A stretch of DNA of 64,000 nt from positions 34,632 to 98,631 of IMG/VR virus record IMGVR_UViG_3300013101_000005; one strand, 5' to 3'. This DNA comes from a virus. The notes under the pieces were generated by a model that did not search any database, was not told where the DNA came from, and saw nothing but the letters and a program-made list of their open reading frames with translations. Made by a program: the position numbers and the translations under genes. The stretch's first letter is position 1, and every line of letters begins with the position of its first letter. Shown here piece after piece: positions 25,443 through 50,600 of the stretch.

Positions 25443-26753
25443 GTGAGCAAACCTAATGAAATAAGACATCCGCAAGCAGCTTTGCTTGCAGAAGAATATG
25501 TCTGTCAAAGAGTTCAATCTCTCGGGTATACCGCAGATTTGAATTCCGAAGAGGTTCACCAGCTTACAGATGCTAATGTGGTTGAGGTCGTTGATTCAGA
25601 TCCTACGGTTTCTCTCTCAATTGACATCAATGAGTTTGGTTCAATTAATATATATAATCAATTAGCAGGATTTACTGCTTTTCCTACTAGCTTTGATACT
25701 GCTGATGCAAAATATGGGTTTACAGAAGCTACACTTGATAATACAAACCATCGTGATGGTACTATTTCCCATGTTGACTTTGGTGAAATAGGTACTGATT
25801 TCATGGTTCATGTCAAGGAAACCTCAGATGGGACTACTACTAGAGCCTTGTGGTTTAGTAATTGTTTCATTGATAGTCTCTCTGGTACATATCAGGTTGA
25901 TGGTTTCGCTTCAGAATCTGTTTCAATGTCTGGTTCTGCCCAACGGTGGTTCTTAAATGCATGGGCAGGGGCAACTATTGGTTATAGTGAATGGCTTGGT
26001 GTTGGTGGTGTTGATCACTCTATGTCAGATCTAGGTTCTGATGGTTCTGTTTTATATCTTACTGAAGACGGTATTATATTATCAGATAGTCTCTACACTG
26101 TTGCAGCCGCCCAATTTGTACAAGCTGGGGGACATGATTTCCCTGAAGACAGTAGATTCCGTTATATCTATGTTCCTAGTACAGTAGTTTTCCCAACTAT
26201 TCCTCAAGACACTGGTACTCTTATCGGTGGAGTGAAAGAAGGGGAAATTGAGTTGATAATGTGGGATTCTGATTTAAAAGCGGAACCCGGCATTGGTGTT
26301 GACGGTGCTGCTGATATTCAGGCACTTCGGGTACAGTCTATTGATTATGAAATCTCTTTTGATAGAGAAGATTTGAAACAACTGTATACTGGTACTTACT
26401 ATAAGGGCTTGAATACTATTACTGTTACAGCTAGTCTAAATGTCCTTGATTCTGATCTTCAAATGTGGGCTTTAGCTACTGGAAACACTAATAACTATAC
26501 TAATGATATAGTTAATACCATGTCCTTAGCTGATTTTCAATCTATGAGTACTCTTGATGCTCGTATTGATGTCTTTAATACTAAAGACTATTTACTACAT
26601 GCTGGAGATACTCTATTGAAATCCATTACCCTTATTGGGGGCAAGGTTACATCTGTTGGAGATTCCAGAGATGTTCCTGGTCGTGGTAGTCAAACGTTTG
26701 AAGTTCAATTTACTAATGCTCATTTCACTGGAACTGGGCTTGTCGGTAGGTAA
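25443..26753 (+). CDS. Major tail (tube) protein with internal duplication
   Basis: AAGGAGG SD with GTG start; position before the chaperones and tape measure gene; two RVQS-containing halves. Confidence 0.8.
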   Translation: MSKPNEIRHPQAALLAEEYVCQRVQSLGYTADLNSEEVHQLTDANVVEVVDSDPTVSLSIDINEFGSINIYNQLAGFTAFPTSFDTADAKYGFTEATLDNTNHRDGTISHVDFGEIGTDFMVHVKETSDGTTTRALWFSNCFIDSLSGTYQVDGFASESVSMSGSAQRWFLNAWAGATIGYSEWLGVGGVDHSMSDLGSDGSVLYLTEDGIILSDSLYTVAAAQFVQAGGHDFPEDSRFRYIYVPSTVVFPTIPQDTGTLIGGVKEGEIELIMWDSDLKAEPGIGVDGAADIQALRVQSIDYEISFDREDLKQLYTGTYYKGLNTITVTASLNVLDSDLQMWALATGNTNNYTNDIVNTMSLADFQSMSTLDARIDVFNTKDYLLHAGDTLLKSITLIGGKVTSVGDSRDVPGRGSQTFEVQFTNAHFTGTGLVGR

Positions 26754-26842: not shown

Positions 26843-26854
26843 TTGGAGGATGAT

Positions 26855-27541
26855 ATGACTAAGAAAGTAGAAGAAACTGTTGTTGAGGAAGTTGTTGTTG
26901 AAGAAGAAGAAAAAAAAGAGACTAAAGAAGACTCAGAATTATTTACTGTAATAGCTTCCGGAGAGAAAACTATTACATATACAAAAGAACCCCATGGGTT
27001 TGATCTTGTTGTAAAATTCAAACTACCAACAATGAGTCAAAAAAGTACTGCTGACATGTTATATGCTAAAAAGTATAACAAACTCCTACAAGATGATGAC
27101 CATCTAACAACCTCACAACTATTAGAAACAGCAAGACGGCGTAAAACTTGGACCGAAGAAGACGAAATTCGTGTTACTAAAGTAGACGCTGATATTATAG
27201 ATACTAAAGAGTTAGTACAAGATGAGAAAAATAAAAAGAAAAAGGAAAGTTTAGAGGCTGAATTAGCAGAATTTAGGGAAGAGAAATTTAGGTTGGCACT
27301 AAAAGTTGGACAGATTACAGGGACTTCCATTGAAGTTCTTTCTGAACAAGAAAGAACCAGTTACATGTTAATTAATTGTTTATATGTTATTGATGCGTCT
27401 GGGGAGTCTGCTTTAATGTATCCTACTAGATCCGCTTTGGACGAAGAGCAAGATCTAAAAAGACTAGAAACTGTGTTGCTTGAAGCAAAGAGTTTCTGGT
27501 CTGGTGAAGGCTTATCGGATTTTTTGCACTTAGGCGATTAG
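26855..27541 (+). CDS. Tail assembly chaperone (gpG-like)
   Basis: Lies between tube and tape measure genes; GGAGG SD; slippery site near the 3' end. Confidence 0.75.
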   Translation: MTKKVEETVVEEVVVEEEEKKETKEDSELFTVIASGEKTITYTKEPHGFDLVVKFKLPTMSQKSTADMLYAKKYNKLLQDDDHLTTSQLLETARRRKTWTEEDEIRVTKVDADIIDTKELVQDEKNKKKKESLEAELAEFREEKFRLALKVGQITGTSIEVLSEQERTSYMLINCLYVIDASGESALMYPTRSALDEEQDLKRLETVLLEAKSFWSGEGLSDFLHLGD

Positions 27542-27843
27542 CTAGAAATTCTTTTGTGCAACTAAGATGGAGAGAGAGTTCACGAAGTGGACTTCCTATG
27601 TTCCCTATACAACATGCTTCAGATCTTTCTTACGTCCAGTTGTGGCTCCTGCATTGGGTACAGGTATACGACTGGGCGTTTTCTTTATCAGACAGAGAGA
27701 AACCATCAGACAGCGTTTTAGATGATGATGAAAGTTTTGATGATTGGTATAGATACTATGCCGCACAAAAGATGAGAGACTCTAGACAAGGTACTGCTAA
27801 TCGTAGTAGTAGTAAATCCCACGATAACGTTATAACCTTTTAA
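27520..27843 (+). CDS. -1 frameshift extension of the tail chaperone (gpT-like)
   Basis: The -1 frame is open from heptamer T TTT TTG (27520-27526) to TAA at 27843; no clear SD for the GTG at 27556. Confidence 0.75.
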   Translation, partial: FFALRRLARNSFVQLRWRESSRSGLPMFPIQHASDLSYVQLWLLHWVQVYDWAFSLSDREKPSDSVLDDDESFDDWYRYYAAQKMRDSRQGTANRSSSKSHDNVITF

Positions 27844-27854
27844 CGGAGATTAAA

Positions 27855-30800
27855 ATGGCCCAAAGTTCAGACACAGCACGCTTTGTAATTACTGGTGAAT
27901 TTAGAAGCGGAGAAATGATAAAGCAATTTGAGGCTTCTATTGGTCAGATGTCTAAAATGGCAAGTGCAAAACTTGGTAAAGTAGGCAAAGAGGTAAGTGC
28001 TTCCGTAGAGAGTGGAATGGTTAAAGGAGCCGAAGCTGCTGGCGGTAAGATGGCTAAAGGAATGCAGAAGGTAAAAACAGAAGCTAAGGGTGCTGGTAAG
28101 AATATTGATGATATGGGCAACAAGATGGATAAGGTTAATGCAGACATATTTACTGCGGTAAAACGTGTCTTATTGTGGGGTACTGCTTCAAGGTTAATCT
28201 ATAACACTTATGGCAAAATAGCTGATGCTGTAAAAGATGTTGTAGAGTTAAATAGAATTCTTGTAAACATTGAAAAAATTCGTCCTGCTGGACTAGATGT
28301 AGATATTATAAGCGAAGATATTTTAGCTAAAGCTAAAAAGTATGGTGTTGCTTTTGCTGAAATTGGCGAAACTCAAAGAACATTCTTCCAGCAAGGTTTT
28401 AAAACAGCGGAAGTTATCAAATTAACAGAGTCACAGTTGTTAGCTGTTACTGCTGCTGGGTTAACCGCTGGTGAAGCCATGGAACTACTTGTTAGTTCTA
28501 TGACTGTTTTTAATATTTCTGCTCAACGTTCCATTACTATTGTTGATAAATTACAAAATGTCCAAGCTAACTATGCGGTGTCTACTCAAGATCTTGCTTC
28601 TGCTATGCGAAGGGTTGGTCCTGTCGCTCAAGAACTTGGTGGAGATATTGATCACTTAATTGGACTTATAACTACACTAAAAGAGTCTACTCGTAAATCT
28701 GGTGAATTTATTGGTACTGCTCTTACTACAATCTTTTCTCGTACTATAACAAGTGTTGGTGCAAGTCAATTACGTAGAATTGGTGTAGATATTAATGAGA
28801 CAGCACAGATATTACGTCCTATAAAAGATATTTTTGATGAAGTAGGCAGAGCATGGGCAAACCTTACTGATCAAGAAAGGATTAGTACTGCGTTTGCTCT
28901 TGGTGCTAGACGTAGATATCCCCAAGTTATTGCTTTGTTTGAAGATTATGCAAAAGCATTAGAAGTGGCGGCTCTTTCAACAAACTCCTTTGGTGCTGCT
29001 CTTATAGCACAGCAAAAAGAAGTGCAATCAGTATCTAGGCAGATGTCTATTGCTACTGAATCAGCTAAACAAGCTGGTATTGCTTTTGTTAAGGCTTTCT
29101 CTTTTTCTGGTAGTATTGAATCAGATTTTAAAAAAATAGCAAAAGCTATACAAGATTTTAATAATTTTGTAAAAAAATCAGCTAGACCTCTAGCAAATAT
29201 GGCTAAATCTCTGGCCTTTTTTGGTACCGTTGCTATTTTAAATGTAAGTCTAGGGGTGTTAGCAAAGAGGATAAGTTGGGTAGGGGTTAGGGCTTTGTTT
29301 GTGGCACCTGCTCTTACTGCCATGTCTGCACAAATGACAATAGCAAGTAGATCCGCTTTTATCTTAGGGAAAGCCATAAATCTTATTGGAGGATTCCTCC
29401 CTTCTATTGTAATTGCAACGATTGCCTTTACAGCACTTGAATACAAAATTAACCGAAATAATAATGCAATTGGGGATTTAAGCGAAGGGTTCCGTGGATT
29501 TTCTGAAGAATCTGAAAGTGTAAAAAGAACTTTAAATGAATATCTTAGTATAGTAAAACAATTTACTCAGGTAGAAGGCCCAAAATCTTTGGTTGATTTT
29601 CTTGGTGCTGATTTTAAAGGAGGTAAAGATAGTATACTTGGTTATATGAAAGCAATAGAAGGAGTTGGGGAAGATTTAGAGGGGGCTAATTTTGAGAAGT
29701 TTAAACAAGCTATACTTGCTGTTCGTGGTCCTACTGCTTCTGTTGAAGAAGCCTTTTATGATCTTTCTCAAGTTATAGGATTTCTTCAAGCTACTAGTTC
29801 TGGATTCAGAAAAGAATTAGAAGAAATGTCTACTCAAGCTAATACCTCTCGTAATATTATTACAGACCTTGCGGTGAGTTTAGCCTCTTTGTTTACAGAA
29901 GGGTCAAGATTCTCATCTGAGGATTTCTTAACAGAAGCCTTTGGTAAAGGAACCCTTGATAATATAGATAAAAGAATACAAGATATTGCAAATGAAATAT
30001 CTAAAGCTGAAAATTCATTTCCTAAAATGTTGTACACAACAGTAGATGAAAGATCAGATTTTGCTGCTTTTCAAGATAGAGTATTTGATGAATTAGAAAA
30101 AGAGTTACTTGCTGGTAATGGAAAATTTGCAGAATTAGCAAGGGAAGGTGGGATTCATGGCACTCTGTTTTTAGATGCATACTTCGCCTCCTTAAGGGAA
30201 TCTATAAATGACTCTCAAGTGGAAGATCAACTTTCACTTTTACAAAGTATCCCTTTCTTTTTACCCCTGCTAATAAAAATAAAAAAACCAACAAAGGAAG
30301 AGTTAAATAAGGCATTTAAAGAAGGAGTTGAAGCTCTATCACCAGAAAACATTGAAAAGTTCTATTTAGACGAATATGGTAAGAAAGCAATAAATCTTCA
30401 AGACTTTATTATACAAACCGGAGATACTGCTGTTCTTGGTTCTATGGCTAAAGATTTAGCAGAGGCATATGATGTTGAATTACCCACTATATTTAAAAGA
30501 TTAGAAGATAGATCAAATAAATTTGGTGGGACTTTATTACAATTACAATTAAAAGTCAGAGCCCTATCTGGTAGTGCTGGTTTCTTAGCAGAAAACATGA
30601 CAACTACTTTTAAGAATTTTGTATTACATACACAAGATTCTGTAAAATTAGCAGAAAGTCTTAAACTTGCTGGTTCCTCCTCTTTATATCTAGGGGGGGC
30701 ATTAGCAAAATTAGACTTTAAAGCAGTTGGATCCCGCCTAAAAGCCTCATTAACTCAATTAGCAAAAGTTGATACTCTTGATGAACAAATAAAATCTTGG

Positions 30801-33800
30801 GAAAGAACAAGAGATGCTTATGAAGAATATTTAGTAGTATTAGAGAAAGATCCAAAGACAACGGGATTAAAAATTCAAGCAGCTATTAAAGAATCTGACA
30901 GATTAAGTCAGAAAATTGCTGATCTTACTGTTGAGCAGGAATTCCTTGCGACACAAACAGAAGAACTAAATAAAACAATTGAAAAAGAAGCGGCAGCTTA
31001 TAAGAACCTGTTTACTTATTTACAGAACATAGAAAATGCTTATGGGATACAAAAAATACAGATACAAGCAAATACTGCTGCTAGAAAAAAAGAAATAAAG
31101 GCAATGGAGCAATACCAACGTGCTCTAAACAAAATAGCAATACAAACAGAAAAATTAGATGTAGGGGGCTCTTTCGCTGAGGATCTTGCCTTAACTGTAA
31201 AGGGCATTACAAAAGATTATCAAGAACAAGCCAAAGCAATTCTTCAAAATATAGCTTTAGATGAGAACAGAACACGTAGTTTAAAAGATACCTTAAAGGG
31301 GTATCATGAGGCTCTTGGGGCAAATAATGCCTTTTTGTTGATATCTAAAAGAATCCTTGGTGTAGATCTTTCTGTAAATAAAACTTATCAAGATGCAGAC
31401 CGTCTACTAAATAATACAAATATTAAAAGAACAGTACAGTACACACATACCTTACGGTTACTTGATTTAAATGAAAAAAATGCAAAATCGCTTGCTAAAT
31501 CAAACAATAATTTAGATCAACAAAAGGCTATTCAAAAAGCAAACCTTGCTGTAATAAACTCAGTAGTTAGTGCAATTGAAGATGCGGCAAAAATTTCCAT
31601 AGAGTTTTCTAGAAATATTGCAGAAGTATCTGCAAGTTTTGCAAGATTAGATAGTGGTGGTAGTTTTGCAAAAGAGCTAAGAATTGAACAAGCATTAATA
31701 AGAAGAGAAACTGAACTAACAACAAAAGAAATAGATGCTCAAATAGCAAAGATAAAGCAAGCAGTTCTCTTAAAACAAAACGAATTAGGTCTAGCTAATG
31801 ATCTACTAAAATCTGATTTCGGTAGAACTGCTACTGTAAAACAGTTGCAACAAGCCTTTGAAGAAATGGACTTAGTACAAAAAGATGGGCTTAATGCAAT
31901 ACAATTACAAGCTGCTGGTCAGTTAGAGGGGTTAGCTGCACAGATAAAAAATCTTAAAGCTACCGAAGACAACCAACTTGCCCTTTCTGAATTAAACAAT
32001 CTTCTTGCAATATCCAACTCATTACATGAAGCAAATTTAGCTTCTATAGATAATTACGCTTCTGGTATCCAAGCCTCAATTGCAGCAACAAGAGAATTTA
32101 ATAGTGAGTCTGCTCAAATTCTTAAAAATTTCCAATTACTTAATAAAGCTGGGGAATTTGGTAGACAATTAAAAGTTGAACTTGGTGGAATAACTAAAGA
32201 ATACAAAATACAAAAAGAAGCAATTGCAGCTACTATTGAATTAACAAAAATAAGATTAAAGAAACAACAGGAAACCGCTGGGTTTTATGACGATGTATTA
32301 CTAGCTGAATTGTCTACTAAAGGTCTTTTAGAAGAGCAATTAAATATTAGAACAGACATTGGTGATGTACAAAAATCCCAACTAAACTCAATTGCTATTG
32401 CTGGTCAACAAGAGCTAGAATCCCTACAAATTCAGAGTAAGCAACTAGACAAACAAAAAGAATATGATTCAGAACTTGAACGGATGAATACTCTTTTAAA
32501 ATTAGCGGCTCGAACTCAATCTGATATTAATGATCTTGCCGCAGGATATGCTAATGCCTTCGGTGATGTTATAAAGAATATTGGTGAAATAATAAATGAG
32601 CGTGGTAGTTTAAGAACAATCCTACAGCCCTTTGCTGATGCCTATATAACAAGTGTCACAAAGAGGCTGTCTACTTCTCTACAAACCTATTTTGATGATG
32701 TATTGGAATCTTCTGTTGGTGGTCAACTAAAAGAACTAGAAGACCAGCTAAAGAAGAAATCAGAGGCAGAACCATACGATCTTGGCGGCGATATCATCCA
32801 ACGTAAGTTGATTGATGGTGCTATTGTTACTGGGAATATTATTAGTGCAAAGATTAAGGAAGCTGTTAGTAATATAATACTAACTCAAGGTGAAGTTGTA
32901 CAAGTAAAGGTAGAAATACCAGAGATTCCCCAGTTAAAACTGGAAGTTCCTGTTTTACCTGCACTTAAAATAGAGGCTCCTGATATCCCTCCTCTATCTT
33001 TTTCTATTCCAGAATTACCTAAACTGGAAATTGAAATTCCTGTTCTTCCTGTTTTAAAGGTGGATCTCCCAGAGATACCACAACTTACTTTTGCTATTCC
33101 TGTCTTTCCTAAATTGCAAGTGGAGGTACCGGACTTACCTGCTCTACAAGTGGACATGCCAAACATACCTCCATTAACAATAGAAATACCAGACTTCCCT
33201 AAATTACAAGTGGAAATACCAGACTTACCTACCTTGTCTGTAGCAATCCCTGATATTCCTTCTGTAACAGTAGAGGTCCCTAGAATACCTCAACTGGATT
33301 TAGTGGTCCCAGATTTACCTACATTAAAGGTGGATGTTCCTGTTGTACCTGATCTAGTTATTCCTGAATTAGAAGAATTTGGTATACGTGTTTTTGAAGT
33401 ACCTACTATAGATGTTAAAATTCCAGAAATACCTCAGGTAACAGTAGCTGTACCAGAATTTCCACAATTAACAATAGCAGTTCCTGAGTTACCTAAGGTT
33501 CTTGTGGATATTCCTAACATACCTCCTGTAGTTGTACCGGACATACCTCCATTAAATATAGTTGTGCCTGACTTACCTACTCTGACTGTTGATGCACCAA
33601 AACTATATAAAATAGCTGTGGAGATCCCCTCGATACCCCAGTTAAAACTATTAGTTCCAGAATTACCTACATTAAGTATTAAAGTTCCTATAATACCTGA
33701 ATTAGAGGCCCCTGTAATACCTCAGTTACAATTAGAGGTTCCTGAGTTACCCAAGGTTGTTGTAGATATTCCTAATATACCTCCTGTTGTGGTACCAGTG

Positions 33801-35915
33801 ATCCCGCCGTTAACAATAACGGTTCCTGTACTACCTACATTAACTGTGGATATACCTAATATTCCACAACTGGAACTTCCTAGGATTCCACAATTACAAC
33901 TGAAAGTACCAGAATTACCTACATTAAGTATTAAAGTTCCTCTAATACCAGAACTGGTAGCCCCTGTAATACCTCAGTTGGAGTTAAAAGTTCCAGAGTT
34001 ACCTAAGGTTGTCGTGGACATTCCTAATATTCCTCCTGTAGTTGTACCGGACATACCTCCGTTAAATATAGTTGTTCCTGCTTTACCTACATTAGCTGTA
34101 GCACTTCCTGATATACCTACAGTAACTGTGGAGATCCCTACAATTCCACAGTTACAACTACAAGTTCCAGACTTGCCTACATTAAGTATTAAAGTTCCTG
34201 TAATACCAGAACTGGTAGCCCCTGTAATACCTCAGTTACAATTAAAAGTTCCTGAATTACCTAAAGTTGTCGTAGATATCCCTAATATTCCTACTGTAGT
34301 TGTGCCGGATATTCCACCACTAACAATAATTGTTCCTGAACTTCCTACTTTAGTTGTGCCAATACCGGAAATACCTCAAGTAACTATGGTAGTGCCTGTA
34401 ATACCCCCCATGGAAATTGTTGTACCGGAATTACCAACAGTAGTGTTTTCTGTTCCTGATATACCAGAACTATCTATTGCTGTACCTTATATTCCTGAAA
34501 GTATAAAATTAGATGCCCTAGAAGCGGCACAATTAATATCAGCTACTTTGCTTTCTGGTGCGCAAGTTATATATACAAAAATAGCTGAAGCTATAAAAAC
34601 AGCAACTTCCATTACTATTGCTGTTCAAGATTCTGTAAAGTTAGATGCTTTTGAAGCTCAAATACTATTATTAGATGCCCACAGACAAGGTGCTGAAATA
34701 ATGAAAGCAAAAATTATTGAAGCAGTACAATTCTTTACTTTAAATGCTGGTGAAGGTGGGGAAGAAGTTAGTGTAGATACTAATGGTGTACAACAAGCCA
34801 TAACGCAGGGTGCTATAACTGGAGCAAATGCTATTGGCATTAGTACAAATGAAGCGGCAGATAAAATTTCTACCACAAATTTTGGTATTCCTGATACTAT
34901 AACTTTAGATGCTGCTAATGCTAAGTTACAGCTTATAGAAGGGCACACCATTGGTGCTGAGATTGCAAAAATTAAACTTATTGAAGCATTCTCTTCTTTT
35001 AAAATAGCAGACACAGCAATACCAGATTCAAAAGAAGACTCACCAGACCTTTCACAAGAAGCTAGAGTGGCTACTACTACTCTTGTAGAAGATCAAGATT
35101 TTGGTAAATTCACTATAGAACAGGATCAGAAGTCTTTAGCTTATATAAATAATGTATCTGCTAAAATTTTAGATGCTCATACACAAGGTGCTCAGATTCT
35201 TTATAATAAAATAGTAGAAGCTCATACTACTTTTGCTCCTGGTACGGGACAACAAGCCTTACCACAAGTGGCAACAGTAGGTGGAACTACAGACACTTTT
35301 AATACAACTCCTATAACAGATGGTTTAACAGGAGTAACAACTGGGGTAGGACTATTAAATGTTAGTCAGCAAGAACAAACCGAAGAAACAGAATTAACTA
35401 CTGAAGAAATGGCAAAGCAAGTAAATAAACAACGCTTGACTATTTCTGCAATTCAAGGTCTTGGCGTTATCATGGGGAACCTTGTTGGTGGTGGTGGGAT
35501 TGGTTCTGGAATAGGAGCCTCTATTGGTGGTATTGCTGGTTCTTTCTTAGGACCTGTTGGTGGAGCAGTTGGCTCAGTTGTCGGTGGGATACTTGGTGGA
35601 TTATTTGATAGTGCTCCTGAAGTAGAGGAACCAGAGCCTTTCCCTTCAACTATATATGAAGCTAATTCAGATGCTCTTGCTAAGAATACAGAAGCTCTAA
35701 TAAGAAATTCTCAAAACTTCGACTTCATGAAAAAATTATTAAATGCTCCTGCTAACTTTATTCAACCTGCTTTTGCTGATGTTGGTGGAGGAGCAAACAT
35801 AACTGTTCAAATAAATGCTCCTGTGGGCAATGAGAATGCCGTAGGTAAGGCTGTGTACGATGCTGTTTCAAAGGTGTACTCTAATGATTATAGACGTATT
35901 GGGAGGCGTGGATAA
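27855..35915 (+). CDS. Tape measure protein, 2686 aa (TP901-type core, helical repeats, proline-repeat insert, Gly-zipper C-terminus)
   Basis: Follows the chaperones; core motif STQDLASAM..VG..A...G....G.FIGTAL.TIFSR; Ala/Leu-rich coiled coils. Confidence 0.92.
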   Translation: MAQSSDTARFVITGEFRSGEMIKQFEASIGQMSKMASAKLGKVGKEVSASVESGMVKGAEAAGGKMAKGMQKVKTEAKGAGKNIDDMGNKMDKVNADIFTAVKRVLLWGTASRLIYNTYGKIADAVKDVVELNRILVNIEKIRPAGLDVDIISEDILAKAKKYGVAFAEIGETQRTFFQQGFKTAEVIKLTESQLLAVTAAGLTAGEAMELLVSSMTVFNISAQRSITIVDKLQNVQANYAVSTQDLASAMRRVGPVAQELGGDIDHLIGLITTLKESTRKSGEFIGTALTTIFSRTITSVGASQLRRIGVDINETAQILRPIKDIFDEVGRAWANLTDQERISTAFALGARRRYPQVIALFEDYAKALEVAALSTNSFGAALIAQQKEVQSVSRQMSIATESAKQAGIAFVKAFSFSGSIESDFKKIAKAIQDFNNFVKKSARPLANMAKSLAFFGTVAILNVSLGVLAKRISWVGVRALFVAPALTAMSAQMTIASRSAFILGKAINLIGGFLPSIVIATIAFTALEYKINRNNNAIGDLSEGFRGFSEESESVKRTLNEYLSIVKQFTQVEGPKSLVDFLGADFKGGKDSILGYMKAIEGVGEDLEGANFEKFKQAILAVRGPTASVEEAFYDLSQVIGFLQATSSGFRKELEEMSTQANTSRNIITDLAVSLASLFTEGSRFSSEDFLTEAFGKGTLDNIDKRIQDIANEISKAENSFPKMLYTTVDERSDFAAFQDRVFDELEKELLAGNGKFAELAREGGIHGTLFLDAYFASLRESINDSQVEDQLSLLQSIPFFLPLLIKIKKPTKEELNKAFKEGVEALSPENIEKFYLDEYGKKAINLQDFIIQTGDTAVLGSMAKDLAEAYDVELPTIFKRLEDRSNKFGGTLLQLQLKVRALSGSAGFLAENMTTTFKNFVLHTQDSVKLAESLKLAGSSSLYLGGALAKLDFKAVGSRLKASLTQLAKVDTLDEQIKSWERTRDAYEEYLVVLEKDPKTTGLKIQAAIKESDRLSQKIADLTVEQEFLATQTEELNKTIEKEAAAYKNLFTYLQNIENAYGIQKIQIQANTAARKKEIKAMEQYQRALNKIAIQTEKLDVGGSFAEDLALTVKGITKDYQEQAKAILQNIALDENRTRSLKDTLKGYHEALGANNAFLLISKRILGVDLSVNKTYQDADRLLNNTNIKRTVQYTHTLRLLDLNEKNAKSLAKSNNNLDQQKAIQKANLAVINSVVSAIEDAAKISIEFSRNIAEVSASFARLDSGGSFAKELRIEQALIRRETELTTKEIDAQIAKIKQAVLLKQNELGLANDLLKSDFGRTATVKQLQQAFEEMDLVQKDGLNAIQLQAAGQLEGLAAQIKNLKATEDNQLALSELNNLLAISNSLHEANLASIDNYASGIQASIAATREFNSESAQILKNFQLLNKAGEFGRQLKVELGGITKEYKIQKEAIAATIELTKIRLKKQQETAGFYDDVLLAELSTKGLLEEQLNIRTDIGDVQKSQLNSIAIAGQQELESLQIQSKQLDKQKEYDSELERMNTLLKLAARTQSDINDLAAGYANAFGDVIKNIGEIINERGSLRTILQPFADAYITSVTKRLSTSLQTYFDDVLESSVGGQLKELEDQLKKKSEAEPYDLGGDIIQRKLIDGAIVTGNIISAKIKEAVSNIILTQGEVVQVKVEIPEIPQLKLEVPVLPALKIEAPDIPPLSFSIPELPKLEIEIPVLPVLKVDLPEIPQLTFAIPVFPKLQVEVPDLPALQVDMPNIPPLTIEIPDFPKLQVEIPDLPTLSVAIPDIPSVTVEVPRIPQLDLVVPDLPTLKVDVPVVPDLVIPELEEFGIRVFEVPTIDVKIPEIPQVTVAVPEFPQLTIAVPELPKVLVDIPNIPPVVVPDIPPLNIVVPDLPTLTVDAPKLYKIAVEIPSIPQLKLLVPELPTLSIKVPIIPELEAPVIPQLQLEVPELPKVVVDIPNIPPVVVPVIPPLTITVPVLPTLTVDIPNIPQLELPRIPQLQLKVPELPTLSIKVPLIPELVAPVIPQLELKVPELPKVVVDIPNIPPVVVPDIPPLNIVVPALPTLAVALPDIPTVTVEIPTIPQLQLQVPDLPTLSIKVPVIPELVAPVIPQLQLKVPELPKVVVDIPNIPTVVVPDIPPLTIIVPELPTLVVPIPEIPQVTMVVPVIPPMEIVVPELPTVVFSVPDIPELSIAVPYIPESIKLDALEAAQLISATLLSGAQVIYTKIAEAIKTATSITIAVQDSVKLDAFEAQILLLDAHRQGAEIMKAKIIEAVQFFTLNAGEGGEEVSVDTNGVQQAITQGAITGANAIGISTNEAADKISTTNFGIPDTITLDAANAKLQLIEGHTIGAEIAKIKLIEAFSSFKIADTAIPDSKEDSPDLSQEARVATTTLVEDQDFGKFTIEQDQKSLAYINNVSAKILDAHTQGAQILYNKIVEAHTTFAPGTGQQALPQVATVGGTTDTFNTTPITDGLTGVTTGVGLLNVSQQEQTEETELTTEEMAKQVNKQRLTISAIQGLGVIMGNLVGGGGIGSGIGASIGGIAGSFLGPVGGAVGSVVGGILGGLFDSAPEVEEPEPFPSTIYEANSDALAKNTEALIRNSQNFDFMKKLLNAPANFIQPAFADVGGGANITVQINAPVGNENAVGKAVYDAVSKVYSNDYRRIGRRG
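32895..34499 (+). repeat. Coding repeat array of 8-10 aa P-x-(I/L)-P units with 84-86 aa higher-order repeats
   Basis: The anchor PELPKV recurs at 33483, 33741, 33993 and 34251 (spacings 258, 252, 258 nt), with nucleotide-level similarity. Confidence 0.95.
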
Positions 35916-42655: not shown

Positions 42656-45600
42656 ATGAGTATTAAACACCACCAAGCAACAGTTTCCACAACTTTAAAA
42701 GAAGCTGGGGATAAAGTAGTCCAAAAACATGATTCTACTGTATCTGTTTATAGAACAAACTACTCTTTCCCTTCTAACGGAGCAGATTACTATGTGTTTA
42801 ATAGCTCCTTAGGTGGGGCTTCTGGCCCTTCCTTGGCTAGTCCTGATGACCCAAATATTGTTAGCTATGGAAATATAGGGAATCTCTTCATAGATTGGGA
42901 GGGCGGCGGTCCTGAGGCTTCGACCTCTTCTATATGGCAAACAATAATCCAAGGAATGGCTTGGGGGCTAAATGGTCCAGCAGCCCCTGTAGATGTTACA
43001 TTTAAACTTGTGTACAGTGGTGGAGTTATTTTAAGTACTGGTGCGTGGGGGTCATATGAAGACACCCCTTCTGGTAATTTGTCAACTGTTTTAATAGATG
43101 ATTGGGATCAAGACGGAACTTCTGTTGTTCAGACTAGAGTGGTTTCTCAAGAAGTAACTGGAGCAGGTTTTATAAATACAGGAGCTTTTGCTTTTAGATT
43201 ACGTTACTGGAATAGAAGTGATGCCCCACATCTAGTTTGTTTTATAAAGAGGGATGGTATAGATGATGATTTTGTTGTTATGGGGGCATCTACTTTATCC
43301 TCTGGTTATGTGCCTGTTAATGGAGAGACATATGCAGCAACAAAAACTGTTTTAGAAGATGTAGTATCTTGGAATATTGATAGAGCACATGATAATATTA
43401 CTACAGCAGATATTCTTTTATTTGTAGATGCAACCACATCCTCAAATGCATATGATCCTGAAACAGAATCCTTTGGTGATATACGTAAAGGGAACTATAT
43501 AGAAATAGAAGCTGGATATAATGGTGAACAAACAAAAAGATTTGTTGGTAATATATCTGGTAGTACTCAAATTTCTCGTGAAGCAGAGGGGGCATATGTA
43601 ACATTGCATTGTGAAAGTATCGAGGGATTTTTAATAGACTCAAAAAACTTTAATTATCCTAATAATGCAATGTATAGCTATGCTGAATACACAACAGATG
43701 CAAGTGCTTATTATGAACCAAATGGAATAAAGCGTCCAGTAGCCTTTGACCAATGGGGATTAACTAGAGCTATAAGGGCTGTTTCTCTTAATGCTGGTGT
43801 AGACGACTATTATTTAAATCAATATAGACAATTTTATGCAGAAAATGGTACAATAACAACATCAACAACAAAATTAATAAGAGATTTAAATATATTCATA
43901 TCACGAACTAACGTTCTGCCTGATATAAATGTTAATTTACCAGAACAAGAATATCTTTGGGTATACGATTTCGGACAAGACACAGCTTATGATATCATAA
44001 AAGATATATTATCAAAATATGGATACTATTTAAGTAGTCTTGGTGGTGGCGATTTTTGTGGTTCTTTTGAACTTATTGAAGTAGAGTCTCCTACAGATAT
44101 AATAACTAAAATAAACACAGGGCTATCAAGTAATTACGTAGAGGGAATCCCTACGGAATATGCTGAGGGGTTCCTTTCTACTAAAATGAAAGCAAGTACT
44201 TCTACTTTAGTTGTTAATTGGGCAGGGAGTGGTATGGCCCTGTTAATGGGAGTAGGCCCTTCTTTAGCTGATTCTATAGCTATAACATATAAAGTTAATG
44301 TGTCTGATGGAGATTGGACTAATGCTTATGGGTATACACATGATTTTACTACATACGCTACAAGATTTATTGATACAGAATATGTAAATAGTGATTACAA
44401 TATTTTTTCATATGAAAACATTAATGCTCCCTCAGGTGGTAACCCCTCAATATTCTCTATTATTTTTAGTATTGATGATGAGGGTAATCCAGTACCATTA
44501 CCATATGGTGACCATTTAATACGATTGTCTAAAACGGTAGCAGAGGAAGCTTTTTTTGAAGGTGTTTTGGGCTATGATTTTGGAGGGGATTCTTATAAAG
44601 AATATTCTACATATGATATAATTACAGCTTTTTCTGTAGAAAATAGTATTGCTGATATAAGGAATGATATAGTAGTTCTAGGTGCCCCAAGGGGTGGATT
44701 CTCTTTTGTAGCAGATGAGGATTCTATCGCAAATGTACAAGAAAAATATGTTACATCAAGAGCCGCAGATCCTAGATCTATTTATGACCCAACATATAAA
44801 TTCTATGTAGGACGTAGAAAACAATTTGTAATAGAAGATCCAACAATTGTTACACAAGAAAGAGCAGATTGGTTAGCTGTTCATGTATTAGAAAAGTATA
44901 GAACTACCTCTAATGTAGGAGCTATCTCTATCCCATGTGATCTTGGGTTACAAGTTTATGACCAAATAAATATAGAAGAAGTACAAACAGGTTCTATTGA
45001 CTCTGGCTCTGGGTTTTATGCAAATCAATTAGTTGAAACATACTCTAAAGAGGAATATTCCTTACAGATTTCCTATTTAAATCATTGGATTCCTCCATCA
45101 TTTAGAAGAAGGGAACAAATAACATTAAATGATATTAGAGATTATTTTAATAATAGCCCAATTGCCTTTGAGAGGCAAACAGTTCCAATATTAGATGTAA
45201 GAACAGGCTATGATCCTATGTCAGCAGAAGATGGTATATATATTGATTTTGAGTGGACATTACTGGTACCGGGTATTCATTCTCTTGAGTTATTTGATAC
45301 ACGTGGTGACCAAAGAATACCGTTATACCATGCTTCTGAAAACCCAAATGAGCTAGTGGCTGTCCCTTTCGTTGGTATATATGAGTACCCTGGTAAATAT
45401 AGAGCAAGGTGGGATGGGGTACATGAGGGGTATGATTTAAATAGTAAATTTGCAAATACAAATTATGCAGACGTATACTATACTCCAAGGGGGCATGGAT
45501 ACGGTGCTAGAGGGCAAGATACTGCTATTATAGATGAAGTTCATCCTATACAAATAGAAGACGGGGATTTTCGTGCTGCCAAAAGAGTATATTTTCCTTT

Positions 45601-47677
45601 ATACCCTGTAATAAAATTTCAACCAATATACCCAGAGCACAGTACTTTAAACAATGTATTAAATTTTGGGTCAGAAAGCGGTACTGGATATAGTGATGGT
45701 GTCCTTATTTCTCAAGGAGATAATTCTTCTTTTGATGTGCAACACTTTGATTTAGAAGAGAGACAAAAACTATATTGGAATTTTGATCAAGAACGGTTTG
45801 GGACAGCAACAGATCAAGCTAATTTTATGGCCCACACTTCTCATGCAACAGATGCAGCGTTTGCAGAAGATGTTGATAACGTATTTATCAGGGAACAAAG
45901 TAGAACAGAAGCATATCAATTAAATAATGACATAACGCATCGTGTAATGGCCTGTGACCCCAAAAGACCCTTTGCAGAACCAACAGATACTGCTGGGTAT
46001 GGTGGTATAAGAAGACGACCTGTTAATATGCCCATGATAGATGAAACTGTTGGGGTTAGAATGTTTGTTGATGGTGTTTATGATAAAGATAGACGGTATA
46101 ACATATGGACAGCTAACCTACATATAGATGTGTTAACCCATTATATAGATACTTGTACTTATAATATAACTCAATATAGGGCAAGGGATAGAGGGCAGGG
46201 GGGGATATTCACATATAATATTAATGAATCTGTTACAAGAAAATTTAATTACTTTTTTAGACAACCACTACATGATATTCCTTTAGTTAGTTTTAATTTA
46301 TCTAGACAAACAATACCTGTTAAATCTTGGACATTTTTACCAGGAATAGAAGATAGTACAACATCCACCTCCGTTATTTTTGAAACAGTATTAAAAGATC
46401 AAGAAATATCAATACAACAAGCTGCTTTTGATACTATAAATACAGATGCGGCTGGAATTTCTGGTGTTGGGGTCGGCTCTGTTTTTGCTATTCCTATAAA
46501 TAGAATGACAGGAACTTCCTTAGATGGTTTTAACTTTTTTAGAAATTCAGCAGTATCATATTCTATACTAGAAAGACTTCATTGGCAAGGTGATATGCCA
46601 TTATTTCTAAGAACTTCCTTTGTAAGAGATTGGGACCAAAGAGAATTCTGGGAATCTAATAGAGAGTGGGCTGGGGATTATATAGATAATATAACAGGGA
46701 ATACTTACTTGTATAGTTATACAGGAACTACCTATTATGATCGTAAAATTTATAATTCTATCGTTGTTTCTATTGAATATTTACTAATAGATAGACTTGG
46801 TAGGGGATATTATTCCAGTGCAAAAACAGACGAAGGTAGAGTCCTAGTAGGAAGAAGAAATGATATAGAATTTCATTCTGAATTGGGTAGAGAGTTGTGC
46901 AAGTATGTTAACAGGTGGGATCCTTATTTACCCTCTGCTTGTTACTTTGAAAGATCTCCATATTCATTTACACATACTGATTTTGGAGACAGTTATTTAA
47001 ATACTATTAGAAATCATGGTAATACAACATATACACCATATGATCCAGATTATGATGGATTAAATTTAACAACACAAATACACAGAGAAGTTCAAACAAA
47101 AACAACATCAGACGTTGTACAAGGTACCACGTTGTTCCCATTAGATTCTGTTGAAAGAGTAGTAAGACCTAGTATTATATCTTATCCTTGGTATGTATAT
47201 CCAGCGAATCTCCCTGATTTAAATACTAGTGAAAATGCTGATGGGGCTTTATTTGGATTTTTTGGTACACCAAATACCCATTTAAATTCAAAAGTATGGC
47301 ACGCTCATAGTGTCTCTGGTAATTTTCCAAGGGACCATACTAATGAACCAGTAGACCAAGTAGGGCCGTGGGGACTCCCTGTTTATATTTCAGGTGGTTT
47401 TACAAATAAAGTTTTATCAATAGTTAATCATTCTGGTAGATATGATGCTATATCTGAATTATCCCAATGCCCTATCTTAGGCTTGCCAAGGGATGGGCAC
47501 ACTTGGTCAAACTGGTATGTAAGAGAATGGAATAATTTAGGAGTACCAAACCCAACTCTAGATGATTCATATATAAGCGCAAGAAGTGGTTTGTACGCTT
47601 TACTAAAAAATGCACCAGTATTCACACTGGTTGGCGGCGGTAATTATACTTGTAATAATTTTACACTTAGTTTCTAA
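42656..47677 (+). CDS. Large tail tip/hub (Tal-like) protein, 1673 aa
   Basis: IEIEAGY...RFVGNI, DIRNDIVVLG, IEDP.I.T...A..LA and GLQVYDQI hub-type motifs; FlgD-Ig-like segment near 45235-45420. Confidence 0.7.
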   Translation: MSIKHHQATVSTTLKEAGDKVVQKHDSTVSVYRTNYSFPSNGADYYVFNSSLGGASGPSLASPDDPNIVSYGNIGNLFIDWEGGGPEASTSSIWQTIIQGMAWGLNGPAAPVDVTFKLVYSGGVILSTGAWGSYEDTPSGNLSTVLIDDWDQDGTSVVQTRVVSQEVTGAGFINTGAFAFRLRYWNRSDAPHLVCFIKRDGIDDDFVVMGASTLSSGYVPVNGETYAATKTVLEDVVSWNIDRAHDNITTADILLFVDATTSSNAYDPETESFGDIRKGNYIEIEAGYNGEQTKRFVGNISGSTQISREAEGAYVTLHCESIEGFLIDSKNFNYPNNAMYSYAEYTTDASAYYEPNGIKRPVAFDQWGLTRAIRAVSLNAGVDDYYLNQYRQFYAENGTITTSTTKLIRDLNIFISRTNVLPDINVNLPEQEYLWVYDFGQDTAYDIIKDILSKYGYYLSSLGGGDFCGSFELIEVESPTDIITKINTGLSSNYVEGIPTEYAEGFLSTKMKASTSTLVVNWAGSGMALLMGVGPSLADSIAITYKVNVSDGDWTNAYGYTHDFTTYATRFIDTEYVNSDYNIFSYENINAPSGGNPSIFSIIFSIDDEGNPVPLPYGDHLIRLSKTVAEEAFFEGVLGYDFGGDSYKEYSTYDIITAFSVENSIADIRNDIVVLGAPRGGFSFVADEDSIANVQEKYVTSRAADPRSIYDPTYKFYVGRRKQFVIEDPTIVTQERADWLAVHVLEKYRTTSNVGAISIPCDLGLQVYDQINIEEVQTGSIDSGSGFYANQLVETYSKEEYSLQISYLNHWIPPSFRRREQITLNDIRDYFNNSPIAFERQTVPILDVRTGYDPMSAEDGIYIDFEWTLLVPGIHSLELFDTRGDQRIPLYHASENPNELVAVPFVGIYEYPGKYRARWDGVHEGYDLNSKFANTNYADVYYTPRGHGYGARGQDTAIIDEVHPIQIEDGDFRAAKRVYFPLYPVIKFQPIYPEHSTLNNVLNFGSESGTGYSDGVLISQGDNSSFDVQHFDLEERQKLYWNFDQERFGTATDQANFMAHTSHATDAAFAEDVDNVFIREQSRTEAYQLNNDITHRVMACDPKRPFAEPTDTAGYGGIRRRPVNMPMIDETVGVRMFVDGVYDKDRRYNIWTANLHIDVLTHYIDTCTYNITQYRARDRGQGGIFTYNINESVTRKFNYFFRQPLHDIPLVSFNLSRQTIPVKSWTFLPGIEDSTTSTSVIFETVLKDQEISIQQAAFDTINTDAAGISGVGVGSVFAIPINRMTGTSLDGFNFFRNSAVSYSILERLHWQGDMPLFLRTSFVRDWDQREFWESNREWAGDYIDNITGNTYLYSYTGTTYYDRKIYNSIVVSIEYLLIDRLGRGYYSSAKTDEGRVLVGRRNDIEFHSELGRELCKYVNRWDPYLPSACYFERSPYSFTHTDFGDSYLNTIRNHGNTTYTPYDPDYDGLNLTTQIHREVQTKTTSDVVQGTTLFPLDSVERVVRPSIISYPWYVYPANLPDLNTSENADGALFGFFGTPNTHLNSKVWHAHSVSGNFPRDHTNEPVDQVGPWGLPVYISGGFTNKVLSIVNHSGRYDAISELSQCPILGLPRDGHTWSNWYVREWNNLGVPNPTLDDSYISARSGLYALLKNAPVFTLVGGGNYTCNNFTLSF

Positions 47678-47686
47678 GGGGTTAAT

Positions 47687-50600
47687 GTGAAAAAGACACA
47701 AAGGCAAGATGTTATAGATCAAATACGTGATTTATCAAAATCTCGTAAATCTGTATATATTAAGGATCTGAATATTCAAGGAATACATTTTGAAGAAACA
47801 ATACCAGATGACCAAGCAGAAGGCCAAGATAGTATTGTTAGGTGGAATAGAATAACTTATTATCAGGATAATTCTACACAACCATCAGAATCATTATTTG
47901 AAAACATAGACAACCTTATAAATCCTAATATAAATACAGATGATATAGTATCTTTATCTGGATTAAGTGATACAAATATAACATATCAAATAAACTCAAA
48001 ATACACCACAATTATAAAAACCCAAAAAACAATAACAGATACATTAACACTATCTGGTAAATGTTGGGCAACTCTATATATAAATAATACTTTAGTATTA
48101 ACGCATAAGTATGATCCTGAGATTGAAGGATCTATTACTACTGTTACTTCAATACCTATCCCTTTTCCTAGACAACAGGAAATAACAATTCAAATTTATG
48201 TGTATGGGCACCTGAATGATACTAATACTGAGACTATCTCTCTATCTGGTAGGGCCTTTAGTTTTATTGAATACAATAGACTAGAAACTGTTTTACCTCC
48301 GTTAAACCTTTTTGCTACAGATAACTTAATTAATACTGTAAAAGTATCTTGGGAACAACAACAAGGGACAATTGGACAAGGTGGTGGAGTTGAGGTTTGG
48401 GGGAAACAACAAGATATTGAGTCTGATTATGTGTTGTTAGGTAGAGTTCCTTACCCTTCAGAATTTTTTATGCATACAGAACAAATAGGAAGTTCTGGTC
48501 TTATATCCAATGCTACCTTACAGCGATATAATTTTTATGGTGACACAGAGCTTGGGGCAGCGGTACCGGATTCTGAATATACAGATGGGACAGGTCTTGT
48601 GGATTGGGGAGTAACTAATCCTGCATCAGGAGCAGGGCAATTCTATGTTAGTAATTCTAGTATACCTGGCCAAGAATATATGTTATCTTACAATGTTAAT
48701 TTAAAATATGATATACCATTTAATGAGGAAGTATCCTCAACACTAAGAGTACCAGCAGAGATAATAAATCTTAAATTACAAGATCCAATTCTATTTACGT
48801 ACAATAGTACATATACTCTAAAGGTTGATTCTGCTATAACACAACCAACCATACCCACAAGTGGACACATAGAGTGGGTTTGGGACTACGATCCAAATAT
48901 AACAGATGCCCAAGTCCAATGTATTGTTTACATAAGTGGTAGCCCTACTACTTTTACTGTAGATGCTGTAGAAGGTAGTTATATACATGAATTAACCTTT
49001 AGCCAAATTTATAATTATTATTTAGATCCATCATATATTGATGCTGAATTTAAAACAACAAATGCTTTAAGAAATTCTGATAGTGCAGATTCTGAGATCT
49101 ATTATCAAGGTACCAGTATACATTGTACTCATAGTGATCTAGCTTCTGGTGTTTTGGACTCTAAACCATTTACAGTTAAGCCTGATGAAGAACTTACTGT
49201 AGAAATATTAACTTCTGACGATTTTGGTGTATTTCAGCTAGGGGGGATTCTTTATACTCAGAAAGAAAATGGGGACCCTTCTGGTAATGTGCATTTAACA
49301 AATCTTAAAAAGACTAGACAAGGTACTTTATATAAGTATACAAAAACAATTAAGATCATAAACCCAGAAGCTAGAGTTGCCTTTCTTTCTTTGGGGATAA
49401 GTGCCCCAAACGAGAGTGGTTCTGGAGAAATAAAATTTCACCAAATTGATGTGCTAAAACTTGCAACAAAAAGCCTCCCAAGTGGAGCAGCTTATAGTTA
49501 CAAAATAAGAAATTACACAAGAACATATTCATTTTCTGAATTTACAGATCCGGTTGTTGGTTATGCTGCTAGAGAAATTTATTACTTAACATTAACTGCT
49601 GATACTGAGTATGTTTCTTCTTTTCAAAGTACTAAGATATATGCAAGGGCTACTTCCCCGTTGTCTTACATAGATGTTGAAACAGTTCCTCCTGATGGTG
49701 AGTATGTTATTCCTTTGCAAGAGGTAGGACATAGTTTAAACTTGGCTGATTATACTTTTGAATACAGACCTTTACTTAGTAATTGTGTTATTTTTGATAC
49801 ATTTGAAACAGATCGTGATTTACGAGAGAATCCTGATGCAAATGGTGGTCTAACCAATGGTTTTGAAACATACGAAAATTCCCCGGCAAGAATACCGGCT
49901 GTTTGGAGAATTGAAGGGCCAACTACACCCTATTTGTGGGCAGATAGTGTATATAAATTTTGGAATCCTGGTGATTCTGAATCTAATGCTTACAGCACTT
50001 TTATTCAATTCGATGACTATAACCGATATAAATACAAAGAGTATGATTTAACAAAAGTTTCTACATTTTATTCTGGTATTTTAGGGAATAGTGGTTATGG
50101 TGGGGCACATAACCAAAAAGATCCAAAAAATATGGATAAATTTAGCCTTGGTATGATACTTAGAATAGATGCCCATAGCCAAAATGTTGGAGAAAATAGT
50201 ATAATTACTAGATCTCCACAAATATACACATTACATGTGTACCCACACTCCACAAATGTAGTTAGGCTTGCCCTAGCTATCCGTGGTAATCAGTATAGCT
50301 GGCAAAATCCAGATAATGGTGATGTTGTTTTAATACATACTATGCCTGTAACAACAGATGCTGATACTTACTTTTATGTACACGCTTCTGCTGATTGTAA
50401 CGCACTAGATGACCCAACTAGAACTTACATGGCTGTGCATGAAGTATCCTTAGATACAGATGCTACAGTAGAAAATTTGTATTCTGACAATGTACTGATA
50501 AACAGTACTAGATCTGAATGGTGGAATTGGGAGGATGCTGATCAAGCCTTTTTGGGATTTTCGTCTGGTAGTGCTACTGGGGATTTTTGCACATTTACTG

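Follow-up and report, generated by a model that had tools for sequence, protein, structure and literature searches.

The tape measure protein (TMP) encoded in the analysed window, a stretch of phage DNA of 64,000 nucleotides, carries a proline-rich array of about 526 residues, which accounts for 20% of the protein (P0001, Table 1). The array is built from hydrophobic PxxP decamers and occupies an insertion site whose length varies widely among related TMPs. Repeat-expanded TMPs are already known; the novelty of P0001 is the non-helical hydrophobic PxxP decamer as the repeated unit, and the lengthening of a ruler protein by such proline decamers is rare, uncharacterised and non-helical.

Table 1. 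Features of the tape measure gene and its neighbours, in window coordinates.
Feature	Position	Strand	Details
Tail tube protein, 436 aa, double-domain T5 pb6 / P74-26 type	25443..26753	+	predicted with AF2 and Foldseek
Putative tail assembly chaperone pair	26843..27843	+	by position and frame arrangement only
Tape measure protein gene (P0001)	27855..35915	+	2686 aa; PF10145 and PHROG TMP matches
PF10145 PhageMin_Tail domain	28329..28892	+	aa 159-346, E 1.4e-26
Hydrophobic segment, N-terminal third	29190..29444	+	aa ~446-530; inferred from reading the translation
Helical unit directly preceding the array	32784..32885	+	aa 1644-1677; kept in all relatives (family alignment)
Proline-rich array	32916..34496	+	aa 1688-2214 (~526 aa); 52 PxxP units
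First 14 decamers, unbroken	32916..33335	+	aa 1688-1827
Four super-repeats (86, 84, 86, 86 aa)	33480..34505	+	TRF 258-nt period, 3.6 copies; alignment
Super-repeat 1	33480-33737	+	aa 1876-1961
Super-repeat 2	33738-33989	+	aa 1962-2045
Super-repeat 3	33990-34247	+	aa 2046-2131
Super-repeat 4, most diverged	34248-34505	+	aa 2132-2217
Four helix-plus-strand units past the array	34491..35234	+	aa 2213-2460; orthologs of the final P0127 TMP units
Gly-zipper hydrophobic segment	35448..35606	+	aa 2532-2584; kept in 8/8 relatives, invariant Gly columns (alignment)
Conserved C-terminal domain	35607..35912	+	aa 2585-2686; blastp 38-63% identity to 8/8 relatives, stretches reaching the C-terminus

Judged by its sequence matches, the product of this open reading frame is a tape measure protein of the PF10145 (TP901-type) family, in agreement with the initial annotation: besides the PF10145 domain, nine PHROG TMP families match the protein with E values down to 3e-59. 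The gene is placed between tube- and chaperone-like genes on one side and distal tail genes on the other, an order collinear with that of the syntenic phage L009. The AF2 model of the tube protein (alignment of 21 sequences, pLDDT 79.5, pTM 0.82) found the P74-26 tail tube 8ed0 (E 5.5e-9) and the T5 tail tip entry 7qg9 (3.1e-8) as best matches in Foldseek, with the T5 tail tube 9iny, T5 pb6 5ngj and the DT57C tail tube as further matches. Since a tube protein of the double-domain T5/P74-26 type adjoins the TMP, the phage is, on the strength of this model, a siphophage with a non-contractile tail. The chaperone candidates are an acidic 232-aa ORF (26843-27541), which has a 48% identical counterpart in L009, and a 95-aa ORF in a different frame (27556-27843).

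Proline-rich repeats had initially been annotated at 32895-34499 (aa 1681-2215); they are real, although the array proper is slightly shorter (Table 1). Its units comprise 41 decamers, 8 octamers and 3 irregular units of 28, 20 and 12 aa, and the consensus reads hydrophobic-P-(E/D)-(I/L)-P-x-L-x-(V/I/L)-x. The 41 decamer spacings observed compare with a mean of 0.62 and a maximum of 4 in 2000 shuffles of the same residues, and TRF reports a 30-nt period at 33104-33231. The array holds 118 prolines (21-24 per 100 aa inside versus 0-5 elsewhere in P0001). V, I, L, M and F together make up 45% of its residues, Gly only 0.2%, and its net charge is -38; its mean scaled hydropathy of 0.578 is the highest among the four parts of P0001 compared, the others ranging from 0.46 to 0.50. 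Two prolines in every ten residues rule out an alpha helix for the array, and its large share of hydrophobic residues, the near absence of Gly and the net charge argue that it is no floppy hydrophilic linker either.

Super-repeats of 86, 84 and 86 aa with synonymous divergence had also been described and were recovered here, together with a fourth, more diverged copy of 86 aa. In pairwise comparison the super-repeats are 65-82% identical in their DNA, with dS values of 0.5-1.0 and dN/dS ratios of 0.17-0.36. The PxxP frame is retained in 49 of the 52 units, the conserved prolines use all four Pro codons, and the hydrophobic positions are kept even where no DNA similarity remains. The array thus grew by hierarchical tandem duplication, of the decamer and then of the 84-86-aa block, and the super-repeat duplicates are, as judged from their codon divergence, old and under purifying selection. 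As a separate observation, the strong conservation of the pattern exceeds what a mere spacer requires and so speaks against a plain one.

An assembly artefact, in which the repeats were made or inflated by metagenome assembly, had been named by the initial annotation as a possible refutation, and the source record, an uncultured linear IMG/VR contig of 98,631 bp with a CheckV completeness of 71%, is of a kind in which this has to be considered. However, the longest exact DNA repeat within the array measures 37 nt, far from identical copies make up the super-repeats, the reading frame is open across the entire array as initially claimed, and codon usage is native (GC3 of 0.198 in the array versus 0.186 in the rest of the gene). 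These features make a foreign insert or an artefact unlikely, and as arrays of the same type occur in other TMPs from independent assemblies, we consider that an artefact can hardly explain the repeats.

That the array is an insertion, as had been proposed, is borne out by the comparison of homologs with and without it. The TMPs of the family range from 1562 to 3134 aa, that is, about two-fold, and the closest of them is 54% identical to P0001. None of the eight family relatives has the decamer array, nor does any of 105 other PF10145 TMPs. Six of the eight relatives hold 31-82 aa at the insertion site, and the other two (P0127 and P0128) about 1200 aa of 48-aa helix-plus-strand units. Hence, the feature that varies at this site is length and no particular fold, and the range of 31-1229 aa across the family indicates that this length is evolutionarily tunable. 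The tunable length put forward initially is thus supported for the site, but the array itself is not currently slippage-prone, given its short exact repeats. Downstream, the Gly-zipper and the C-terminal module, of which the array had been said to lie upstream, are conserved in the relatives, and aa 2213-2686 of P0001 share 48% identity with aa 2657-3134 of P0127 (blastp). From the family alignment, the site is a lineage-specific hot spot of length variation between the helical ruler core and the Gly-zipper/C-terminal module. For the two phages whose tail tube proteins were compared, the window phage and L009, these proteins share 63% identity, yet the TMP of L009 comprises 1585 aa. A search for related loci with the family alignment yielded two syntenic loci (L009 and L010), while the same search with P0001 alone gave no match; megablast of 24 kb against deposited phages likewise gave no match and thus no near-identical relative. 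With low confidence, the decamer may stem from the proline-containing strand of the 48-aa helix-plus-strand unit of the family: the last array unit leads directly into the strand of such a unit. The registers, however, lie one residue apart, and the ten residues compared are too few for a firm assignment.

The same decamer is present near the C-terminus of at least eight metagenomic TMPs of the P2, lambda and PF10145 types. These include P0010 (P2-type, 1512 aa), P0020 (lambda/TMP_3-type, 1181 aa) and the PF10145-like P0002, P0003, P0004 and P0033; P0067 (grouped with P0004), P0064 and the TMP-like P0005, P0007, P0009 and P0071 bear it as well, and none of the metagenomic decamer TMPs is characterised. 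Like in P0001, the decamer follows the pattern hydrophobic-P-(D/E/T)-(I/L)-P-x-L-x-(V/I/L)-x, and the arrays span 80-900 aa in the last 5-40% of the protein. Unlike in P0001, where the array precedes the Gly-rich hydrophobic segment, most of these arrays follow it, so that the position of the array relative to the membrane-active part is not fixed. Because the N-terminal TMP families and the GC contents are unrelated, the arrays are probably independent expansions. In P0010, the array stands in place of a short proline-containing linker of cultured relatives, and the decamer is absent in the cultured relatives examined. A new architecture, as claimed initially, is upheld among deposited phages and in the literature but not in metagenomes: tblastn with the array as query gave no match in 50,697 records of deposited phages, where the low-complexity filter of BLAST may hide such repeats, and a search of the literature on proline-rich or polyproline TMP segments returned nothing relevant. 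A DNA pattern of four perfect decamers matched 13 stretches in IMG/VR, none of them in a TMP (four come from another protein family, the others are wrong-frame simple repeats), and 43 stretches in 185,579 genomes, where no long TMP-like ORF contained one.

These comparisons bear on the idea that the array is harmless filler, left when a short linker with prolines was multiplied at a permissive site by replication slippage and unequal recombination. The site does accept 31 to 1229 aa of varied content, the P88_4B11 TMP has a short Pro/Val linker at an analogous site, and tandem repeats occur in 52% of IMG/VR TMPs (PMC13585406). Nevertheless, the low dN/dS of the old copies, the retention of the PxxP frame and of the hydrophobic positions beyond DNA similarity, and the occurrence of the same consensus in unrelated TMP families differing in GC content argue against mere tolerance, which we regard as improbable.

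Structure prediction gave no confident model of the array. AF2 on the single sequence of aa 1640-2298 reached a pLDDT of 38.6, and a predicted trimer of a 170-aa double super-repeat, for which the window's own repeats served as the alignment, scored 0.00 with a partner pLDDT below 50, which speaks neither for nor against a trimer. The ESM Atlas offered weak PPE-family look-alikes only (0.80, under the reliable range), the PDB sequence search with the array nothing meaningful, and Pfam no match in the array at E <= 0.1. Several candidate folds could be rejected. A pentapeptide-repeat beta-helix, marked by the pattern A(D/N)LXX, is not in accordance with the lack of a pentapeptide Pfam match at this threshold and of a confident AF2 solenoid, and a collagen-like triple helix needs Gly at every third residue, which the Gly content of the array does not provide. 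A disordered linker of the PEVK/TonB type is at odds with the hydrophobic composition and with a hydropathy well above the charge-hydropathy boundary of 0.439, a crude rule that leaves some room for disorder. The TonB spacer resembles the array in being proline-rich, non-helical and extended, and is regarded as a rigid spacer across the envelope; its units are charged (Glu-Pro)n and (Lys-Pro)n dipeptides, some 70 aa in all, whereas the array runs to 526 aa of hydrophobic decamers and belongs to a virion protein.

The length of the tail is determined by that of its TMP, and part of the variation among TMPs in length comes from tandem repeats (PMC13585406; PMC5099701). We give an even chance to the reading that the array works as a spacer, non-helical and with a hydrophobic face, through which the ruler gains length or reach close to the tail tip. 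Each chain would probably form short strand or PPII-like segments with a single hydrophobic face, and these faces would be buried where the three TMP chains meet inside the tube lumen. The spacer would add to the measured ruler length, and we propose that the tail would therefore be much longer than in relatives with TMPs of about 1.6 kaa. After ejection, the array may also let the C-terminal module, which would insert into the membrane, reach farther from the tube. By analogy to T5 pb2, whose C-terminus is trimeric within the tail tip and the first part to be expelled (bioRxiv 10.1101/2022.09.20.507954), the Gly-zipper/C-terminal module would be located in the tail tip and leave first.

The array might also not measure at all and instead serve ejection: compact near the tip at first, it would later stretch into a rod or lining across the cell wall or periplasm, or contact host envelope factors, either in front of the membrane-inserting Gly-zipper or behind it. 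The function of the HK97 TMP depends on the periplasmic chaperone/prolyl isomerase FkpA (cited in PMC5099701), which fits such a role. So do the location of the array in the distal TMP part beside Gly-rich hydrophobic segments, both in P0001 and in other decamer TMPs, its strict amphipathic pattern under purifying selection, and the expulsion of T5 pb2, which forms a channel (10.1101/2022.09.20.507954). On the other hand, sister TMPs carry ordinary helical repeats or nothing at the array site, which argues against a specific envelope-interaction function, and the stretches between prolines, with 2 to 6 residues, are too short for membrane-spanning beta strands. Hence, we rate this device as possible but rather unlikely.

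A segment needed for assembly only, for example a chaperone docking tract during tail assembly, or one removed by proteolysis in the way lambda gpH is trimmed to H*, appears very improbable to us. Some TMPs, including T5 pb2, are processed near the C-terminus (10.1101/2022.09.20.507954). The array, however, is internal and ends 475 aa before the C-terminus, so that its removal would take two cuts; moreover, no protease motif was found and the module downstream of the array is conserved.

A further reading, which we put forward only tentatively and hold to be doubtful, is that the decamer array represents a TMP module in its own right that arose by convergent evolution. A trimeric non-helical fibre of strand or PPII type would replace the coiled coil as ruler, with another length per residue, and would act after ejection as a rigid rod that carries the membrane-inserting end across the envelope; the decamer would also be found in a second, non-TMP virion protein family (L013, L015, L017, L023).

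Among known systems, P0001 resembles the repeat-expanded PF10145/TP901-1 TMPs, in which tandem duplication at an internal site alters the TMP length and tandem repeats act as length modules (Belcaid 2011, as cited in PMC13585406; Mahony 2016, PMC5099701). The repeats described there are helical, with aromatic-periodic units or A/G/S/T homorepeats, and hence differ from the PxxP decamers of P0001, and in the text of the TMP repeat survey the word proline does not occur. TMPs of the P88 type (Xuanwuvirus, Peduoviridae) share with P0001 a proline-rich segment towards the C-terminal end; in P88_4B11, in contrast, this segment is short, consists of Pro/Val/Ala and lacks the decamer pattern, and it belongs to a contractile-tail TMP of the P2 family. 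We thus rejected an assignment of the array to the P88-type Pro/Val spacers, also in view of the different TMP family and of the distance of the array from the C-terminus. The initially noted resemblance to periaxin and AHNAK, where hydrophobic residues likewise alternate after each Pro, can be measured (HMMER E 5.9e-9 for periaxin and 2e-7 for AHNAK). It stems from pattern and composition and not from homology: the match is confined to the repeat region, no domains are shared, and P0001 has a phage PF10145 domain in a phage gene context. Periaxin and AHNAK are eukaryotic cytoskeletal scaffolds that differ from the array in being lysine-rich with periods of 5 and 7 residues.

That the decamer recurs near the tip end of unrelated TMP families points to selection for a physical property and not to chance, and the decamer module could serve the tail-length engineering of phages or tailocins. 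The TMP is the textbook molecular ruler, and the figure of about 0.15 nm of tail per residue presumes a helical chain. At the site described here, one position exists in three natural states, without insert, with about 1200 aa of helical repeats or with 526 aa of proline decamers, and the tail lengths of these three variants would tell whether the ruler measures by the number of residues, by contour length or by the length of the folded chain.

P0001, the 2686-aa tape measure protein (TMP) encoded in the window, contains 21–24 prolines per 100 residues in aa 1701–2200 and only 0–5 everywhere else. The 118 prolines within aa 1689–2214 establish 52 PxxP units, namely 41 decamers, 8 octamers and 3 irregular units of 28, 20 and 12 aa, and the 41 decamer spacings compare with a mean of 0.62 and a maximum of 4 when these residues are shuffled 2000 times. 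The proline repeat segment described in the initial annotation is thus real. The decamer consensus is V/I (79%) at position 1, P (100%) at positions 2 and 5, E/D/V at position 3, I/L (92%) at position 4, L/V (96%) at position 7, a polar residue at position 8, V/I/L (89%) at position 9 and a polar or acidic residue at position 10, with position 6 being variable. Anchoring on a recurrent motif yields four super-repeats of 86, 84, 86 and 86 aa spanning aa 1876–2217, by which the three recognized initially are retained and a fourth, more diverged copy is added.

Since pairs of super-repeats share 65–82% DNA identity with a dS of 0.5–1.0 and a dN/dS of 0.17–0.36, the duplications are old and their sequence has been maintained by selection; an alternative reading regards the array as a merely tolerated expansion. 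It has also to be considered that the array might be an artefact. The longest exact DNA repeat within it is 37 nt, its GC3 of 0.198 matches that of the remainder of the TMP gene (0.186) and all four proline codons are used at the conserved prolines, features that speak against its being an assembly artefact or having entered recently from a foreign source.

Features of the tape measure gene, its surroundings and a second decamer protein (window positions unless stated otherwise)
Feature	Position	Strand	Basis
Tail tube protein, 436 aa, upstream of TMP gene	25443–26753		Predicted fold and Foldseek
232-aa acidic ORF, then 95-aa ORF in different frame, between tube and TMP genes	26843–27843
TMP ORF (P0001), 2686 aa	27855–35915	+	Translation
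Repeat, period 30 nt	33104–33231		Tandem Repeats Finder
Repeat, period 258 nt, 3.6 copies	33479–34389		Tandem Repeats Finder
Helix-plus-strand units of ~48 aa	34491–35234; P0127 aa ~1714–2656; P0128 aa ~1367–2540
Gly-zipper segment, 18 Gly in 40 aa	35448–35606
Two very large ORFs (1673 and 1722 aa), downstream of tail module	42656–52855
Non-TMP decamer protein	L013:2332–5640	+	Four-decamer DNA pattern

As noted initially, two prolines per ten residues preclude an alpha helix in the array. It is composed to 45% of V/I/L/M/F, contains almost no Gly, carries a net charge of -38 and has the highest mean scaled hydropathy (0.578) of the four P0001 parts compared. Because an extended chain of even period places positions 7, 9 and 1 on one face, each unit would present a hydrophobic stripe, which fits poorly with disordered, hydrophilic linkers such as those of TonB or PEVK type. 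This sequence pattern suggests buried contacts, most simply among three TMP chains filling a siphophage tube. No solved structure matches the array by sequence, and the single-sequence AF2 fold of aa 1640–2298 reached a pLDDT of only 38.6.

A search with the entire P0001 returned eight family relatives: P0127 (3134 aa; 54% identical over aa 1–1683 and 48% over aa 2213–2686 of P0001), P0128 (2785 aa) and P0129 to P0134 (1562–1601 aa). Neither these nor 105 further PF10145 TMPs returned contain a proline-dense segment. In the family alignment, the site matching P0001 residues 1670–2480 comprises 810 aa in P0001, 1229 aa in P0127 and 1213 aa in P0128, but only 31–82 aa in the six short relatives, which substantiates the earlier proposal that the array is an insert relative to homologues. 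The site in P0127 and P0128 consists of ~20 tandem units of ~48 aa, in each of which a short proline-containing strand (V-D-x-P-D-x-I-x-V-D) is followed by a helical segment (A-x-x-I-L-x-A-H-x-x-G-A-x-I-I). P0001 retains about five such units: one precedes the array, and the four that follow it are orthologs of the final four in P0127. The last array unit leads without a break into the strand of the first unit behind the array. At a syntenic IMG/VR locus (L009, 72.8-kb contig), the structural module is collinear with the window and the tube protein 63% identical, yet the TMP has 1585 aa. As the site in one lineage holds nothing, helical repeats or proline decamers, the evolving property there is, judged from these sequences, length. 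Tunability by repeat expansion therefore holds on an evolutionary time scale, but not in the sense of a rapidly slipping tract, because the exact repeats are too short. The Gly-zipper of P0001 is kept in all eight relatives with invariant Gly columns, and the C-terminal domain following it is 38–63% identical to theirs; both presumably make up the end of the TMP that is bound in the tip and inserts into the membrane.

The source record is a linear IMG/VR virus of 98,631 bp (CheckV completeness 71%), for which no near-DNA relative was found among deposited phages. The N-terminal part of P0001 matches PF10145 (E 1.4e-26, aa 159–346) and nine PHROG tape-measure families. The neighbouring structural genes gave no Pfam match and the phage family is otherwise unannotated. 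The tube protein model, folded from a 21-sequence alignment (pLDDT 79.5, pTM 0.82), is grouped by Foldseek with the double-domain tail tubes of P74-26, T5 and DT57C (E 5.5e-9 to 2.7e-5). Like T5 pb6 and the P74-26 TTP, it is of the fused double-domain type, by which its rings should be trimers of pseudo-sixfold symmetry; the phage therefore has a long non-contractile tail of T5-like trimeric rings. Tail assembly chaperone genes sit between tube and TMP genes, and the two ORFs found there are, by position and frames, a likely candidate for a chaperone pair produced via programmed frameshifting. The 1673- and 1722-aa ORFs, which have no Pfam match, may encode fibres or host-recognition proteins.

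Array matches at E <= 1e-3 numbered 122 in a region-restricted word search together with a full phmmer scan over 1.84 billion representative proteins. Many are unrelated eukaryotic and cell-surface proline repeats, including periaxin (5.9e-9) and AHNAK (2e-7), and a coherent group among them is made up of long phage proteins, from different TMP families, that carry this decamer towards the C-terminus. PHROG TMP families are matched by P0002, P0003, P0004/P0067, P0005, P0010, P0020, P0033 and P0064, while P0007, P0009 and P0071 are TMP-like on architecture only; by Pfam, the decamer-bearing TMPs carry PF10145 in five cases, TMP_3 in two and Tape_meas_lam_C in one. Position preferences coincide in P0001, P0002, P0003, P0009, P0010, P0012 and P0033, namely P (2 and 5), I/L (4), L (7) and V/I/L (9). 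The arrays of the decamer proteins are 80–900 aa long and lie within the last 5–40% of each protein. A Gly-rich hydrophobic segment precedes the array in most decamer proteins, but follows it in P0001.

The array is missing from the cultured relatives whose sequences were read. P0010 is a P2/gpT-type myophage TMP, 54% identical over aa 1–808 to Halomonas phage vB_HboP_4908, with an array of ~470–540 aa directly upstream of the conserved terminal domain. At this site, Halomonas 4908 (862 aa), phiCTX (905 aa) and P88_4B11 (936 aa) contain only a short proline-containing linker, which in P88_4B11 is a Pro/Val/Ala tract without the decamer. Likewise, the array of P0020, of a lambda-like family, is missing from Shewanella phage S0112 and Achromobacter phage Axy20. 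Unrelated host proteins of differing GC content make it probable that the arrays expanded independently.

When the array was compared by tblastn with 50,697 deposited phage records, no match resulted, although the low-complexity filter may hide repeats, and a DNA pattern of four perfect decamers hit no TMP, either in IMG/VR or among 185,579 species genomes. The same pattern retrieved a second, non-TMP protein family of uncultured viruses (L013, L015, L017 and L023) with 25–45 decamers (VVPDIPTEIT or IVPEIPNIEL), followed by Gly-Pro-Ala repeats and C-terminal P-S-x-I-x-L units. Its members have an N-terminal domain in common, and those in L013 and L015 are ~1100 aa long. This family has no PHROG match and may be a fibre or other virion protein using the same repeat. 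By its sequence distribution, the decamer module is rare, not unique, and recurs in about a dozen uncultured TMPs.

Tail length is set by TMP length, to which repeats contribute (PMC13585406, PMC5099701), and the C-terminus of T5 pb2 is a metastable trimer in the tip and the first part to be expelled (10.1101/2022.09.20.507954). We propose that the array, lying distally in the ruler, would act as a non-helical spacer that adds to the measured tail length and, after ejection, to reach. By arithmetic only, its 526 residues correspond to ~79 nm as a helix and ~163–179 nm as PPII or beta strand, and at 0.15 nm per residue P0001 corresponds to ~403 nm compared with ~238 nm for the 1585-aa relative. 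In beta-fibre folds, each residue adds far less length than in a helix. Alternatively, the role of the array might lie in spanning the envelope during ejection, or it might be a processed segment. TMP length variation built from repeats is already known; an array of hydrophobic PxxP decamers as its repeat material is not described in the literature searched. Besides being a recurrent module, the array is of value mainly as a natural experiment in length measurement by the ruler.
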